IMG/VR virus record: IMGVR_UViG_3300043429_001189
Coordinates: 116,024-136,023 of that record
Reading direction: 5' to 3' (one strand)
Source: an uncultured virus (IMG/VR IMGVR_UViG_3300043429_001189)
Taxonomy: Duplodnaviria; Heunggongvirae; Uroviricota; Caudoviricetes
DNA: 20,000 bases
Both the position numbers and the translations under genes were made by a program. Every line of letters begins with the position of its first letter. The first letter of the stretch is position 1. Under the pieces are notes generated by a model. It saw only the letters and a list, made by a program, of their open reading frames with translations. It was not told the origin of the DNA and did no database searches. Of this stretch, positions 1,316-4,915 are shown piece after piece.

Positions 1316-1319
1316 AGAG

Positions 1320-1390
1320 CAGAAGCATTAGGATTCGAACCTAAAATAACGCTTTTGGAGAGCGCCATGATACCTTTTCACCATACTCCT
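1320..1390 (-). tRNA. trnW: tRNA-Trp (CCA)
   Basis: Acceptor AGGAGTA/TGCTTCT, anticodon loop CTCCAAA, T-loop TTCGAAT. No encoded CCA end. Confidence 0.9.
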
Positions 1391-1394
1391 GTAT

Positions 1395-1568
1395 TTATTC
1401 ACAGTATTTATTTTTTCTGCACTTGTATTTATTCTCTTCTTTCTTTTTATCTTTAAATACTTTAGGGGCAAACCTTCCATCATAGAATCCTTGTTCCTGG
1501 GCATTTTTTCTTTGTTTACCCATTTCAATTTTCCTAAGTTGTTCTGAAGTTATCACAAATTTTTTCAT
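1395..1568 (-). CDS. 57-aa basic protein, putative ArfA-like ribosome rescue factor
   Basis: Not in the ORF track. MKKFVITSEQLRKIEMGKQRKNAQEQGFYDGRFAPKVFKDKKKEENKYKCRKNKYCE* fills the gap between tRNA-Gln and tRNA-Trp without overlap. DGRFAPKVFKDKK resembles the E. coli ArfA core DPLFRQRVEKNKK. The ORF is likely real; the function is inferred. Confidence 0.6.
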   Translation of the reverse strand: MKKFVITSEQLRKIEMGKQRKNAQEQGFYDGRFAPKVFKDKKKEENKYKCRKNKYCE

Positions 1569-1590
1569 ATTAAAATTTTTAAATTGTGAG

Positions 1591-1661
1591 TTATCTGATC
1601 TGGGCTCGAACCAGAAATTTAGGACTCAAAAACCTACGTGATACCATTTCACTATCAGACA
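1591..1661 (-). tRNA. trnQ: tRNA-Gln (TTG)
   Basis: Acceptor TGTCTGA/TCAGATA, anticodon arm TAGGT-TTTTGAG-TCCTA with a U31.U39 mismatch, T-arm TCTGG-TTCGAGC-CCAGA. Confidence 0.85.
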
Positions 1662-1666
1662 ATATG

Positions 1667-1740
1667 TAGGCCTGGCAGGGTACGATCCTGCAACCCCTGA
1701 ATTAAAAGTTCAGTGCTCTATCCATTTGAGCTACAAGCCT
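1667..1740 (-). tRNA. trnK: tRNA-Lys (TTT)
   Basis: Acceptor AGGCTTG/CAGGCCT, anticodon arm CTGAA-CTTTTAA-TTCAG, atypical T-loop ATCGTAC. Confidence 0.9.
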
Positions 1741-1747
1741 ATATTTG

Positions 1748-1819
1748 AGCCTTCTGTCGGACTCGAACCAACATCTTCTAAATTACAAATTTAAAGCTTT
1801 ACCATTAAGCTAAGAAGGC
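1748..1819 (-). tRNA. trnT: tRNA-Thr (TGT)
   Basis: Acceptor GCCTTCT/AGAAGGC, anticodon arm TTAAA-TTTGTAA-TTTAG, T-loop TTCGAGT. Confidence 0.9.
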
Positions 1820-1827
1820 AATTTGTG

Positions 1828-1903
1828 TCCGAGAAGAAGGGTTCGAACCTTCATGATGTCTGGTTCCCAAAACCAGAGGCTTAGCCAATTAGCCCATTCT
1901 CGG
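1828..1903 (-). tRNA. trnP: tRNA-Pro (TGG)
   Basis: Acceptor CCGAGAA/TTCTCGG, anticodon arm CTGGT-TTTGGGA-ACCAG, T-loop TTCGAAC. Confidence 0.9.
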
Positions 1904-1913
1904 AAATTTGATT

Positions 1914-1955
1914 AAAAACAAAAAGGTCCAGATAATTTAATTACCTGGACCTTTT
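1914..1955 (-). terminator. Intrinsic terminator (attenuator terminator) immediately upstream of tRNA-Pro
   Basis: Minus strand reads AAAAGGTCCAG-GTAAT-TAA-ATTAT-CTGGACCTTTT followed by TGTTTTT. The G-U pair works only on the minus strand. Confidence 0.85.
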
Positions 1956-1988
1956 AAGAATAATAATTACTATTATACTAAGGTCCAG
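1945..1988 (-). promoter_or_regulatory. Antiterminator hairpin mutually exclusive with the 1914-1955 terminator
   Basis: CTGGACCTT(1988-1980)-AG-T-ATAATAG-TAA-TTATTAT-T-CT-TAA-AAGGTCCAG(1953-1945). It makes 9 perfect bp with the terminator 5' arm and has an inner 7-bp stem. Confidence 0.7.
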
Positions 1989-2097
1989 TATCTGGCCACG
2001 TAGACGGTTGTTGAACACAACCAATAACACCAACCGGTGTAGCAACTGTTTTGCTTGTTGCTTTTGAAATTTTAGCTGATGTGATTTGTTGTTTCAT
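1978..2097 (-). CDS. Putative attenuator leader peptide (39 aa)
   Basis: MKQQITSAKISKATSKTVATPVGVIGCVQQPSTWPDTGP*, with an A-rich start context. Its last codons and the TAG stop overlap the antiterminator 5' arm. Confidence 0.7.
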   Translation of the reverse strand: MKQQITSAKISKATSKTVATPVGVIGCVQQPSTWPDTGP

Positions 2098-2116
2098 ATT
2101 TTTAATTTTAATTTAG

Positions 2117-2188
2117 TGGCGGGGCCGGGAATCGAACCCGAACCTCCAGGTTATGAGCCTGGCGAACTACCGTTATTACCACCCCGCA
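2117..2188 (-). tRNA. trnM: tRNA-Met (CAT), initiator-like
   Basis: Acceptor TGCGGGG/CCCCGCC with a 1:72 mismatch, anticodon arm CCAGG-CTCATAA-CCTGG, T-loop TTCGATT. Confidence 0.85.
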
Positions 2189-2294: not shown

Positions 2295-2418
2295 TTCTTT
2301 TCTTGAGAATTTTAACCAAAGGCGTTAAGAAAGGGGGAAAGCAAATTTCAGTGTTAAAACCTATATTGCTTAGTAGAGCTATATTGAAGTAACCATCGGT
2401 ACCGCTTCAAGAAAAGAA
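2295..2418 (-). ncRNA. Candidate structured ncRNA of about 124 nt
   Basis: Perfect 12-bp terminal stem TTCTTTTCTTGA (2418-2407) / TCAAGAAAAGAA (2306-2295). It also has an internal TTTTAAC/GTTAAAA stem around a pyrimidine-rich loop. No convincing ORF. Confidence 0.45.
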
Positions 2419-2443
2419 TTTTTTAAAGAACGTTTGTAGATAT

Positions 2444-2470
2444 AATATACACAAGATAATAAATAGTTTT
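2444..2470 (-). promoter_or_regulatory. Putative bipartite promoter AAAACT-N15-TATATT
   Basis: The same arrangement recurs at 5661-5688, 10525-10554 and 15422-15447. A boxA-like CGTTCTTT follows at 2432-2425. Confidence 0.4.
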
Positions 2471-2720: not shown

Positions 2721-3269
2721 TTACCACAATCCATCAGAACTTTTAATATCCTTGACTTTAGACAAATCCCAATCAAAATCTGAATGAACTTTAGATTTAC
2801 TAAATATGCCTTTCATATATCTGACATTTCTAATATCCCAATTTCTTAGATTACCATCAAAAGGAGTATCATAAAACATAGATGCCATGTTGGTTACTTT
2901 ACTAACATTCCACCCGCTAACGTCACCCTTAAAAGGTGTCCCTTCAAACATACCTTCCATGTTGGTTACATTGCTAACGTCCCATTCGCTAATGTCACCT
3001 TTAAAATCTGACCCATAAAACATGTAGGACATATTTTTTACATTACTAACATTCCATTCGCTAATGTTGCCATTAAAAGGCATTTCTGCAAATAAGAATG
3101 ACATGTCTTTAATTCGCGAAACATCAACATGACTTAAATCTGCATTAGGCCCAAATTTAGCTATTTCATTTTCAATTATCGACTCTAAAGATTTCCGATC
3201 TATTGCATAAATAACTTTGTTTTGAGCAGCTTCGTTAAGAAACTGATCGAAAGATTTTAAATTTTTCAT
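2721..3269 (-). CDS. DUF285/BspA-like repeat protein with capsid-targeting-like leader (about 5 repeats)
   Basis: MKNLKSFDQFLNE leader, GPNADLSHVDVS cap, and 24-aa FxGDISxWxVSNVxxMxxMF repeats. Confidence 0.85.
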   Translation of the reverse strand: MKNLKSFDQFLNEAAQNKVIYAIDRKSLESIIENEIAKFGPNADLSHVDVSRIKDMSFLFAEMPFNGNISEWNVSNVKNMSYMFYGSDFKGDISEWDVSNVTNMEGMFEGTPFKGDVSGWNVSKVTNMASMFYDTPFDGNLRNWDIRNVRYMKGIFSKSKVHSDFDWDLSKVKDIKSSDGLW

Positions 3270-3273
3270 TTTT

Positions 3274-4050
3274 TTAAATTTTTATATGTTTCAGACCATA
3301 CATTCTATCTACATTATCAGCCTTTGATAAATTCCATTGACTAATATCGCCTTTAAACTTAGAGTCTAAGAACATTATAAATACATCTCTGACATTGCTA
3401 ACGTCCCATTTGCTAATGTCGCCGTTAAATCGAGATTCTGCAAACATGTGCGTCATATCTCTAACTTTGCTAACATTCCACTTGCTGATGTCACCGTTAA
3501 AAGTTGTCTTTTGAAACATGTGCGACATATCAATAACTTTGCTGACATCCCACTTGCTGATGTCGCCATTAAATTTAGACCCTTCAAACAATGATGACAT
3601 CATTTCAACATTACTTACATCCCATTGACTAATGTCGCCGTTAAATTTAGAATATGCAAACATATCAGACATATCACGTACATTGCTTACATCCCACTTG
3701 CTAACATCGCCGTTAAACGAAGAATGACGAAACATTCCCCACACAGTGCGAGCATTACTAACATTCCACTTGCTAACATCGCCGTTAAATTTTGAGAATG
3801 CAAATGTATCATTAAAATTAGTAACATTGCTTACATCCCACTTGCTAACGTCGCCGTTAAATTTTGTACCTGAAAAAGCGGCGCTTATATCGGTTAGACC
3901 TGAAACATCAATGTGATTTAAGTCAGCATTTGGTCCTAGCAATTGAATTTCTTTTAAAATAATTGGTTTTAATTCTTTTGCGTTCTTTGGGACAATAATT
4001 TCGCGTTCTGCTTCATTAAGAAACTGATCAAATGTTTTTAAATTTTTCAT
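3274..4050 (-). CDS. DUF285/BspA-like repeat protein with capsid-targeting-like leader (about 8 repeats)
   Basis: MKNLKTFDQFLNE leader, GPNADLNHIDVS cap, and 24-aa FNGD(V/I)SKW(D/N)VS repeats. Confidence 0.85.
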   Translation of the reverse strand: MKNLKTFDQFLNEAEREIIVPKNAKELKPIILKEIQLLGPNADLNHIDVSGLTDISAAFSGTKFNGDVSKWDVSNVTNFNDTFAFSKFNGDVSKWNVSNARTVWGMFRHSSFNGDVSKWDVSNVRDMSDMFAYSKFNGDISQWDVSNVEMMSSLFEGSKFNGDISKWDVSKVIDMSHMFQKTTFNGDISKWNVSKVRDMTHMFAESRFNGDISKWDVSNVRDVFIMFLDSKFKGDISQWNLSKADNVDRMYGLKHIKI

Positions 4051-4075
4051 TTACTATGTTTTTTTTTATATATAT

Positions 4076-4915
4076 TTAGTTAAACAAATCTTCTTTAGAC
4101 GTTACGTCTCGCAGATTTGTCAAATTCCACATATGAACACTTCTTTTAAATTTAGATCCTTGGAAGATACTTTCAATGTATTGCACTTGTCTTACGTCCC
4201 ACTTACTAATGTCTTGATTAAATGATGAGCCATTAAACATAAAACTCATATTTTCTACATTGCTAACGTTCCATTTGCCGATGTTTTGATTAAATCGAGA
4301 GTCAGCAAACATCCATTGCATATCGGTAACATTTAATACATTCCAATTGCCGATGTCTTGATTAAATTTCGATAACCTAAACATATATGACATATCAGTT
4401 ACTCGTCTTACGTTCCACTTGCTGATGTCACCGTTAAATTGTGATTCCGTAAACATTCCACGCATCAGCTCTACATTACTCACGTTCCAACCACTGATAT
4501 CTCCTTTAAATTTGGAATCTTTGAACATATTAGACATATCAATGACATTACCAACATCCCATTTGCTGATATCTTTATTGAACTCTGATCCTTCAAACAT
4601 ACCTGACATATCTTTTACTTTGCCAACATTCCACTTGCTGATGTCACTATTAAAATGAGAATACAAAAACATATTTTTCATAGAAGTAACATTGCTAACA
4701 TCCCACTTGCTGATATTGCCTTTAAATTGTGACCCTTCAAACAAGGATACCATGTTGGTAACTTGCGAAACGTCAATATGATTCAGATCTGCTTTAGGTC
4801 CAAGTCTAGCAATTTCGCTTTCTACTATATCCTTTAAAGTTTGTCGATCTTTAGCAATAATAGTTTCTTGTGTAGCTTCATTAAGAAAATGTTCAAAAGT
4901 TTTTAAATTTTTCAT
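4076..4915 (-). CDS. DUF285/BspA-like repeat protein with capsid-targeting-like leader (about 9 repeats)
   Basis: MKNLKTFEHFLNE leader, GPKADLNHIDVS cap, and 24-aa repeats. Confidence 0.85.
   Translation of the reverse strand: MKNLKTFEHFLNEATQETIIAKDRQTLKDIVESEIARLGPKADLNHIDVSQVTNMVSLFEGSQFKGNISKWDVSNVTSMKNMFLYSHFNSDISKWNVGKVKDMSGMFEGSEFNKDISKWDVGNVIDMSNMFKDSKFKGDISGWNVSNVELMRGMFTESQFNGDISKWNVRRVTDMSYMFRLSKFNQDIGNWNVLNVTDMQWMFADSRFNQNIGKWNVSNVENMSFMFNGSSFNQDISKWDVRQVQYIESIFQGSKFKRSVHMWNLTNLRDVTSKEDLFN

Follow-up and report, generated by a model that had tools for sequence, protein, structure and literature searches.

A putative leader-peptide attenuator before a phage tRNA block, and analogous units before other phage tRNA arrays

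The window analysed here is a 20,000-nucleotide stretch (positions 116,024 to 136,023) of the uncultured Caudoviricetes virus IMGVR_UViG_3300043429_001189, and is the last part of a 136-kb IMG/VR record whose completeness is estimated at 48%. Its minus strand carries, in this order, tRNA-Met, a 39-codon open reading frame (ORF), an intrinsic terminator, and the genes for tRNA-Pro, Thr, Lys, Gln and Trp. This arrangement probably represents a ribosome-mediated (leader-peptide) transcription attenuator that gates the phage tRNA block and adjusts tRNA supply to demand. A gate of the attenuator type, with a leader matching the tRNAs behind it, had been proposed in a first-pass annotation made from the nucleotide sequence alone. 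The proposal is supported by the present analysis, in which analogous loci of other phages show both the alternative pairing and the tracking of array content by leader codons.

The leader ORF (1978–2097, minus strand) consists of an ATG start, 39 codons in all and a TAG stop, and ends 22 nt before the terminator stem; its translation is MKQQITSAKISKATSKTVATPVGVIGCVQQPSTWPDTGP. The ORF between tRNA-Met and tRNA-Pro, the terminator, and the exact copy of the terminator 3' arm were all found where the first-pass annotation had placed them. An ATG ORF of at least 39 codons appears in 1.07% of 20,000 shuffles of the 160-nt spacer, and the peptide has no Pfam or PHROG match. The 18 nt 5' of the ORF are A/T-rich and without a Shine-Dalgarno (SD) sequence, as in other genes of the phage. 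An SD-like core is found in only 4 of the 115 long ORFs of the phage record, and the 20 nt upstream of its start codons are 50–68% A (55–68% A at positions −17 to −10). This SD-less style of initiation is that of the Bacteroidota and their phages. Since the phage genes are generally without SD, a leader ORF without one says nothing against its translation.

The codons of the leader include AAA (four), CAA (four), ACA (four) with ACG and ACT, CCG (two) with CCA and CCT, and a single TGG. Lys, Gln, Thr, Pro and Trp, the amino acids of the five downstream tRNAs, account for 19 of the 39 codons, and 14 codons are exact Watson-Crick matches to the downstream anticodons. These counts agree with those given initially and prove significant against the phage's own codon usage. 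With expectations taken from the 115 long ORFs of the same phage, residues of the five amino acids occupy 19 of 38 positions against an expected fraction of 0.22, or 8.4 residues (p=1.5e-4). Codons decodable by the five tRNAs occupy 17 of 38 (0.173 expected, p=7.7e-5), and exact matches 14 of 38 (0.146 expected, p=6e-4).

The intrinsic terminator (1914–1955, minus strand) comprises a stem-loop at 1955–1921 with 16 bp, 5 G-C pairs and a 3-nt loop, followed by a T tract; the tail reads TGTTTTTAAT. It is the longest of four terminator-like sites in 5 kb, a count not above that of shuffles (2.2 ± 1.6). Counted from where the T tract ends (1914), tRNA-Pro is 10 nt away; counted from the stem end (1921) it is 17 nt away, confirming the 10–17 nt reported at the outset. 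The 9-nt segment CTGGACCTT (1988–1980) is formed by the last three leader codons and the first base of the stop, and is an exact copy of the terminator 3' arm. It can pair with AAGGTCCAG (1953–1945), part of the terminator 5' arm, to give a candidate antiterminator (1945–1988, minus strand). In the RNA, CTGGACCUU pairs with AAGGUCCAG, and this 9-bp core is extended around a small A/U hairpin. When the 139-nt upstream segment is shuffled 5000 times with dinucleotides preserved, 6 shuffles contain an exact complement of at least 9 nt. The duplex itself is predicted at −16.4 kcal/mol versus −8.6 ± 2.0 in shuffles, with 8 of 5000 shuffles as strong. Of the 15 minus-strand terminators of the phage record, the tRNA-linked one alone is preceded by a segment of strong complementarity; for the other 14 the mean z is −0.33 and none reaches p≤0.01.

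Folding predictions were consistent with a switch. The spacer folds far more stably than 200 shuffles of it, none of which matches its stability (z=−5.7), and the predicted energies of the terminator hairpin and the antiterminator are −20.5 and −17.2 kcal/mol. The minimum free energy (MFE) structure of a nascent RNA lacking the terminator 3' arm is the antiterminator. The terminator is always the preferred fold of the full-length RNA, so a choice between the two would have to be kinetic. In the classic trp attenuator the choice is likewise kinetic and the terminator is the more stable structure. A translating ribosome was modelled as a 30-nt mask, the footprint size being assumed. The comparison of masked and unmasked folds, which the first-pass annotation had suggested, gave the expected division. 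The antiterminator is kept with the A site at K16, T20, P21, Q29, Q30, P31 or T33, and is lost with the A site at W34, P35, T37 or the stop.

One component of the proposed switch did not fare as well. A small hairpin, GGCCAG-ATA-CTGG(A)CC (1982–1997, minus strand; −6.2 kcal/mol), had been put forward as a possible protector. The hairpin is present in the MFE structure of the spacer. It is absent from that of the nascent RNA, where it loses to the −17.2 kcal/mol antiterminator even without a ribosome, and the protector role is therefore not upheld. In the absence of any translation the nascent RNA folds into the antiterminator. The model thus predicts read-through and not super-attenuation under such conditions, because the small-hairpin protector is too weak.

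Based on these features, the gate may work as follows. Transcription would start upstream of tRNA-Met and cross the 39-codon leader, with a ribosome translating behind RNA polymerase. When Lys, Gln, Thr and Pro codons are decoded fast, the ribosome would reach the last codons or the stop and cover CTGGACCTT, the terminator would fold, and the polymerase would halt 10–17 nt before tRNA-Pro. When decoding is slow, the ribosome would be held at or before codon 33, and CTGGACCTT would be free to pair with the newly made terminator 5' arm. With the antiterminator formed first, the terminator would come too late and the polymerase would read through into tRNA-Pro, Thr, Lys and Gln, and probably Trp. 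The outcome would be a negative feedback in which these tRNAs are supplied according to how well the cell can decode their codons. Plausible triggers would be anticodon nucleases or starvation.

Analogous units in other phages were found by means of a tRNA-Pro pattern and one leader-end motif of a leader type beginning with MRQ; these are anchored searches, and the counts below do not express prevalence. A BLAST search of the window tRNA region against the records of 47 relatives returned tRNA matches only and pointed to locus L112, in which a 32-codon ORF and a strong terminator precede tRNA-Pro-Asn-Trp-Gln by 25 nt. The tRNA-Pro pattern gave 23 loci, 18 of which, plus the twin locus L133, carry an ORF of 26–35 aa and a strong terminator 5' of tRNA-Pro. 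An MRQ-type leader and its terminator lie directly before tRNA-Pro at 14 of the 23, a second leader type does so at two, and a third at L141; at L126, with a fourth type, 97 nt separate the terminator from the first of two tRNA-Pro genes. At the other four loci tRNA-Pro is internal to the array, and in three of these another leader type stands before the first tRNA of the array. The MRQ end motif matched 25 loci, comprising 23 MRQ leaders before an array, one 47-codon variant and one chance match inside a gene. In 66 sources, 32 distinct strong terminators were located within 260 nt upstream of a tRNA, and 27 of them have an adjoining ORF of 12–80 codons by rule. On inspection, a 28th (L118) was found to follow the leader MNTMVNIIKSIKHISVKNWAGLVLPNLC, with the core VNIIKSIKHISVK, before Lys-Val-Ile-Ser; of the remaining four, three follow a 161-aa gene and one is a weak hairpin. 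At least ten independent units of unrelated sequence share the same three-part build.

Two units are distinctive in their own right. At L170 (3375–3571, oriented), a 47-codon leader sharing the CDTDVG end of the MRQ family stands before a 22-tRNA array and holds 19 of the 20 amino acids, resembling a 'pan-codon' version of the gate. The cultured Tenacibaculum phage Gundel_1 (L258, MT732474.1) has an analogous unit at 150–275, with a promoter-like box TATGTTTG, which by eye is of the TAnnTTTG type, a 20-aa ORF MKTKLYSYSCFSSWFKNRAG and a terminator AAAAAGTCCTGC...GTAGGACTTTTTTTT. Two weak tRNA-like matches follow, and then tRNA-Phe, tRNA-Ser, one tRNA of uncalled type and another tRNA-Ser. The sequence GCAGGAT at the end of the Gundel_1 ORF is complementary to the terminator 5' arm. 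The Rfam Phe_leader model scores the unit at 27.9 bits, below its threshold of 55 (E=0.056), which does not amount to membership.

The leaders differ from array to array together with the tRNAs behind them. The leader MNVTRTHTQQFWFPTRAGLGMCDNRG, with the core TRTHTQQFWFPTR, precedes the array Pro Thr Phe Gln His Arg Trp; MKNFNTYYSLSLLSSLTGRELKVWV, with the core YYSLSLLSSL, precedes Leu Leu Ser Tyr. Before Pro Pro Gln Gln Tyr Lys Lys Thr Tyr stands MKNYTTTYQGKQYPQGQKPSRLGELYKKGSDELIG, with the core YTTTYQGKQYPQGQKP, and before Leu Arg Pro Asn Leu Tyr the leader is MKNINNISTSTRPLNNGNGYGVQPLCYICSDINKG. Within the MRQ family, alignment revealed ends with almost no nucleotide variation around a variable middle. 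The core of one subfamily (..SNQLNWNEQP..) is located before Pro Asn Trp Leu Gln, and the other core, ..SFIICSKWADER.. (FIICSKWADER), before Ile Phe Lys Trp Arg Cys His and then Asp Ser Glu. In the first subfamily, the presence of CTA in the core is concordant with that of an adjacent tRNA-Leu(tag) in all 10 distinct leaders (six with both, four with neither), a count that leaves out two cut loci and in which the leaders are not independent events.

The first-pass annotation had called for a search of other phage tRNA clusters, and there leader content does track the array. Arrays were permuted among 10 units chosen as independent families, under three rules for the limits of an array. The amino-acid excess was 40.1, 51.6 and 55.1 for the three rules, compared with permuted means of 4.4, 14.1 and 13.5, where the array boundaries are assumed and the expected frequencies come from the ORFs of the window phage, an approximation when applied to other phages. 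The observed excess was reached by 0, 1 and 1 of 200,000 permutations (p≤5e-6), and the codon-level counts by none.

The alternative pairing recurs as well. In 10 representative units, the segment from the start codon to the terminator was tested for complementarity to the terminator 5' arm, giving a mean z of −2.8 with 7 of the 10 units at p≤0.013. The control with the 3' arm gave a mean z of −0.49 and one unit of 10 at p≤0.01. The predicted antiterminator strand lies inside the ORF in all 10 units, 1–39 nt before the ORF end. In nine units, the pan-amino-acid L170 being left out, cognate residues make up 105 of the 189 positions before this strand, versus 14 of the 78 that run from it to the stop codon (Fisher p=7e-9). 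In the MRQ family, the candidate antiterminator joins GUCUCGA with UCGGGAC; the pairing appears when the nascent alignment is folded to a consensus, and 13 sequences are 98.9% compatible with it, with no covariation. GUCUC has a second possible partner in that family, GAGAC at the start codon (AUGAGACAA); such a pairing would be a true 1:2 'protector' and would account for the invariance of MRQ. It is recurrence in unrelated sequences, and not covariation, that supports the alternative pairing.

Several observations weigh against the attenuator reading. In the window leader, the matching codons are spread over the whole length without clustering, the block holds no tRNA for half of the residues (Ile, Ser, Ala, Val, Gly, Cys, Asp), and W34 and P35 are positioned where a stalled ribosome would itself mask the antiterminator strand. 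In the MRQ family, the 7-bp antiterminator does not exceed its shuffle controls, and by energy it is not beyond chance (z of −0.36 and +0.39 for the two MRQ-type representatives, the exceptions among the 10 units). The MRQ pairings are 98% compatible but near-invariant, and the one compensatory pair belongs to the terminator. Whole-peptide tests at individual loci are mostly modest, with p from 1e-4 to 0.7, and are diluted by the conserved ends and by arrays cut at the locus ends. The leaders of L153 and L159 keep TGG though neither locus has a tRNA-Trp. Arrays without such leaders exist, as at L175, among the solitary tRNAs of the twin contig, and at the four of 32 terminators described above. 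No diverged ortholog of the window leader was found in the searches detailed below, where the one contig with this unit was an identical twin. In contigs from four DNA runs, two metagenome variants of nearly the same sequence leave the leader unchanged. Finally, it is by inference that the leader is translated, that the choice of fold is kinetic and depends on ribosome position, and that tRNAs become depleted for the causes considered here.

Other explanations of the locus were weighed against the same evidence. The gate could be a generic translation sensor, responding for instance to host shut-off or ribosome damage without codon specificity, with the codon match being a product of phage codon bias; phage tRNAs tend to match codons that the phage often uses. 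The scattered matching codons of the window, which are common A-ending codons of an AT-rich genome, would suit such a sensor, as would the antiterminator fold of the untranslated nascent RNA and the L170 leader of 47 aa, with its 19 of 20 amino acids before 22 tRNAs. This explanation is nevertheless considered unlikely: the match is significant against the phage's own codon usage (p=7.7e-5) and specific to the leader's own array in the permutations (p≤5e-6), and general bias leaves unexplained both the swap of the MRQ core and the 10/10 concordance of CTA with tRNA-Leu(tag). Quite unlikely, in turn, is an ordinary terminator closing a unit of tRNA-Met and a small ORF, in which the 9-nt repeat would be the relic of a local hairpin duplication and the tRNAs would be transcribed by leak-through or from an unrecognised promoter. 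Such a terminator would have to combine a repeat, an ORF and a codon match that are each improbable, and would leave unaccounted for the recurrence of the three-part build with unrelated sequences in at least 10 other units. The 14 other terminators of the phage have no such repeat, no promoter space exists after the terminator, and promoter-like sites are not enriched in consensus scans. What speaks for a duplication relic is the resemblance of GGCCAG..CTGGACC to a shortened GGTCCAG..CTGGACC terminator core; the locus is also without a diverged ortholog, and a 39-codon ORF, seen in about 1% of shuffles, is not vanishingly rare.

The small ORF might instead encode a functional micro-protein, acting for example on tRNA or translation, with the terminator merely leaky. 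Conservation of the N- and C-terminal residues of the MRQ leaders agrees with this, and a Val codon near the end of the leader occurs with all four synonymous third bases. That variable third base is unpaired between two predicted helices, and the flanking paired columns are invariant at the nucleotide level, so that a constraint on the RNA fits the pattern equally. The peptide middle is replaced wholesale between arrays, the window peptide is unlike the other families, and matches in Pfam or PHROG are lacking. A micro-protein is therefore regarded as very improbable. The leader-peptide attenuator remains the reading that we prefer.

A repeat of about 90 nt at 2384–2470 (minus strand) is a candidate for the promoter and 5' element from which the tRNA unit would be transcribed. 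A second copy lies outside the window, at record positions 115596–115690, upstream of tRNA-Gly. The repeat has a 24-nt core, TTGT[G/A]TATATTATATCTACAAACGTTCTTTAAAAAA, followed by a hairpin GAAGCGG...GTTACTTCAA. The core occurs twice and the hairpin motif three times in the phage record, always on the minus strand and always adjoining tRNAs, with the third hairpin-motif copy directly after tRNA-Gly. The repeat may combine a phage promoter with a hairpin for processing or regulation. The window promoter is placed here tentatively, from the presence of the same repeat before both tRNA clusters of the phage. In consensus-based scans, neither room (10–17 nt) nor signal was found for a separate promoter between the terminator and tRNA-Pro. 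Promoter-like matches in the region numbered 19, compared with 23.4 ± 5.3 expected from shuffles, in a scan that depends on a consensus from which the promoter type of this phage may differ. A TATAAT at 1977–1972, inside the antiterminator loop, was considered as a promoter and rejected, as it has no matching −35 box and promoter-like matches in the region fall below the shuffle expectation. The motif TAnnTTTG, which we take to be a Bacteroidota-type promoter motif, was seen by eye, uncounted, before many leaders.

The gated block of tRNA-Pro(tgg), Thr(tgt), Lys(ttt) and Gln(ttg) spans 1590–1903 on the minus strand with spacers of 4–7 nt. Its members, called by both ARAGORN and Rfam like tRNA-Met and tRNA-Trp, lie at 1827–1903, 1747–1819, 1666–1740 and 1590–1661, respectively. 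The tRNA-Trp(cca) gene (1319–1390, minus strand) is located 199 nt past tRNA-Gln, beyond a 57-aa ORF. A terminator scan of the region found no terminator-like site between tRNA-Gln and tRNA-Trp, and tRNA-Trp is therefore probably on the same read-through transcript. The tRNA-Met(cat) gene (2116–2188, minus strand; Rfam tRNA 46.8 bits) lies 5' of the gate and would therefore be outside its control. Directly 5' of tRNA-Met, at about 2195–2290 on the minus strand, is a tRNA-like remnant with a T-arm-like GAAAGTTCGATTCTTTC and a possible acceptor pairing, which was called neither by ARAGORN nor by Rfam tRNA at E≤1.

The 57-aa ORF (1395–1568, minus strand) has no Pfam or PHROG match. A homolog was recognized by eye at 363–533 of L175, a relative of higher G+C, again in a tRNA region and with the common motif GFYDGRFAPKV. 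With this homolog, the ORF appears to encode a genuine small protein of tRNA regions rather than a leader. Three tandem paralogous DUF285 repeat proteins of 182, 258 and 279 aa (2721–4915, minus strand) lie directly 5' of the tRNA unit, and the two that were tested have Pfam E-values of 4e-49 and 5e-71. On the 3' side are a cupin gene, a cytidylyltransferase-like gene and another ORF without a Pfam match; the cupin and cytidylyltransferase-like neighbourhood possibly serves sugar-nucleotide metabolism. The phage record has a G+C content of about 31%, and 109 of its 115 long ORFs are on the minus strand.

Copies of the window locus itself are few. A 238-kb twin contig contains an identical region (1201 of 1201 bases match). 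Its other tRNAs (Ser, Phe, Lys, Arg, Leu, and a sixth match uncalled by ARAGORN) are solitary or paired and adjoin protein genes, and no leader units were seen with them. Among the best 80 of 429 viral relatives anchored on the cupin gene, only the twin (L003) has the array; among the best 80 of 579 cupin-anchored metagenome contigs, the top identity is 86%. L175 has tRNAs, and its tRNA-Pro is without a preceding leader or terminator. The exact terminator-arm pattern gave 23 loci, with the window context only in the twin. Searches with the 57-aa and 71-aa neighbour ORFs and with a 19-nt promoter-element pattern returned the twin only, and blastn against cultured phages returned tRNA matches only. 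The two metagenome variants differ in the terminator loop (1938), the T-tract length (1920) and the flanks, with no other terminator changes.

Further sequence elements were noted between the tRNAs of other phages. In L149 and L152 (oriented), the spacers before tRNA-Ser(tga) and tRNA-Asp contain a conserved stretch that is not tRNA, about 265 nt long and beginning with AACAGGTGACGACGGTGGTG. The stretch sits between tRNAs in several related phages and may be a structured RNA. Sequences resembling tRNA-Met (GCGGGGAG...CTCATAA...CCCCGCA) are present in the L149 and L152 spacers and at about 1806–1876 of L112. They are uncalled by ARAGORN, and the ARAGORN-based tRNA sets are therefore incomplete.

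The gate most resembles the leader-peptide attenuators of enterobacterial amino-acid operons, such as trpL, hisL, pheL and leuL. It shares with them a short leader ORF rich in regulatory codons, a terminator just before the regulated genes, and an antiterminator built on the terminator 5' arm, so that the two folds exclude each other. The position of the ribosome would decide between the two structures. The energies are also comparable with those of the enterobacterial leaders, the terminator being more stable than the antiterminator. The products here are tRNAs, whereas the enterobacterial leaders control amino-acid biosynthetic enzymes. The gate belongs to a phage with SD-less genes, its leader follows tRNA-Met in the transcript and not the promoter, and its 1:2 protector is weak, so that absent translation may give read-through in place of super-attenuation. 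The thr and ilvGMEDA leaders are multivalent, with codons for several amino acids. In the same way, one leader here would integrate several signals (Lys, Gln, Thr, Pro, Trp); unlike in those leaders, the amino-acid set is that of the anticodons behind the gate, changing with each array, and the codons are scattered rather than arranged in runs. T-boxes bind uncharged tRNA directly, without a ribosome or an ORF, and control aminoacyl-tRNA synthetase and amino-acid genes. The likeness lies in a terminator/antiterminator decision that reports the state of particular tRNAs, whereas the phage gate would use an ORF and a ribosome. No Rfam leader family matched the window at E≤1, and in the spacer Rfam detected no cis-regulatory family, T-box included, giving only chance-level matches well short of the gathering scores (LhrC, 27 versus 110 bits).

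Phage tRNAs can escape anticodon nucleases, and tRNA acquisition has been linked to degradation of the host translation machinery, which provides a rationale for sensing tRNA shortage. To our knowledge, work on this compensation concerns the presence and sequence of the tRNAs and not a demand-sensing gate on their transcription. A bolder proposal, which we put forward tentatively and hold to be less likely than the attenuator itself, is that the gates are counter-defence sensors. A host defence that depletes tRNAs, such as an anticodon nuclease, would stall the leader ribosome, switch on the exact replacement tRNAs, and let them be switched off by feedback once decoding has recovered. The gates would then form a widespread regulatory class, as yet undescribed, among phages of SD-less, Bacteroidota-type hosts. 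Full-text literature searches, with subscription-only literature outside their scope, found no published description of such control of tRNA genes. Within that scope, the logic is known from the trp, his, thr and ilv attenuators, and what seems new is a phage tRNA target with leaders that mirror the content of the array, a class that seems unpublished.

Phage tRNA genes are usually discussed as static helpers of codon usage or as spares against tRNA-cleaving defences. The analogous unit of Gundel_1, a cultured phage, makes the idea of a regulated supply directly testable. If the idea is true, leader composition would equal array content, a signature readable from sequence that would predict tRNA transcription units and the decoding shortages that a phage expects. 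Phages would then regulate their tRNA supply by demand, and the logic of attenuation would extend from amino-acid synthesis to the tRNA pool.

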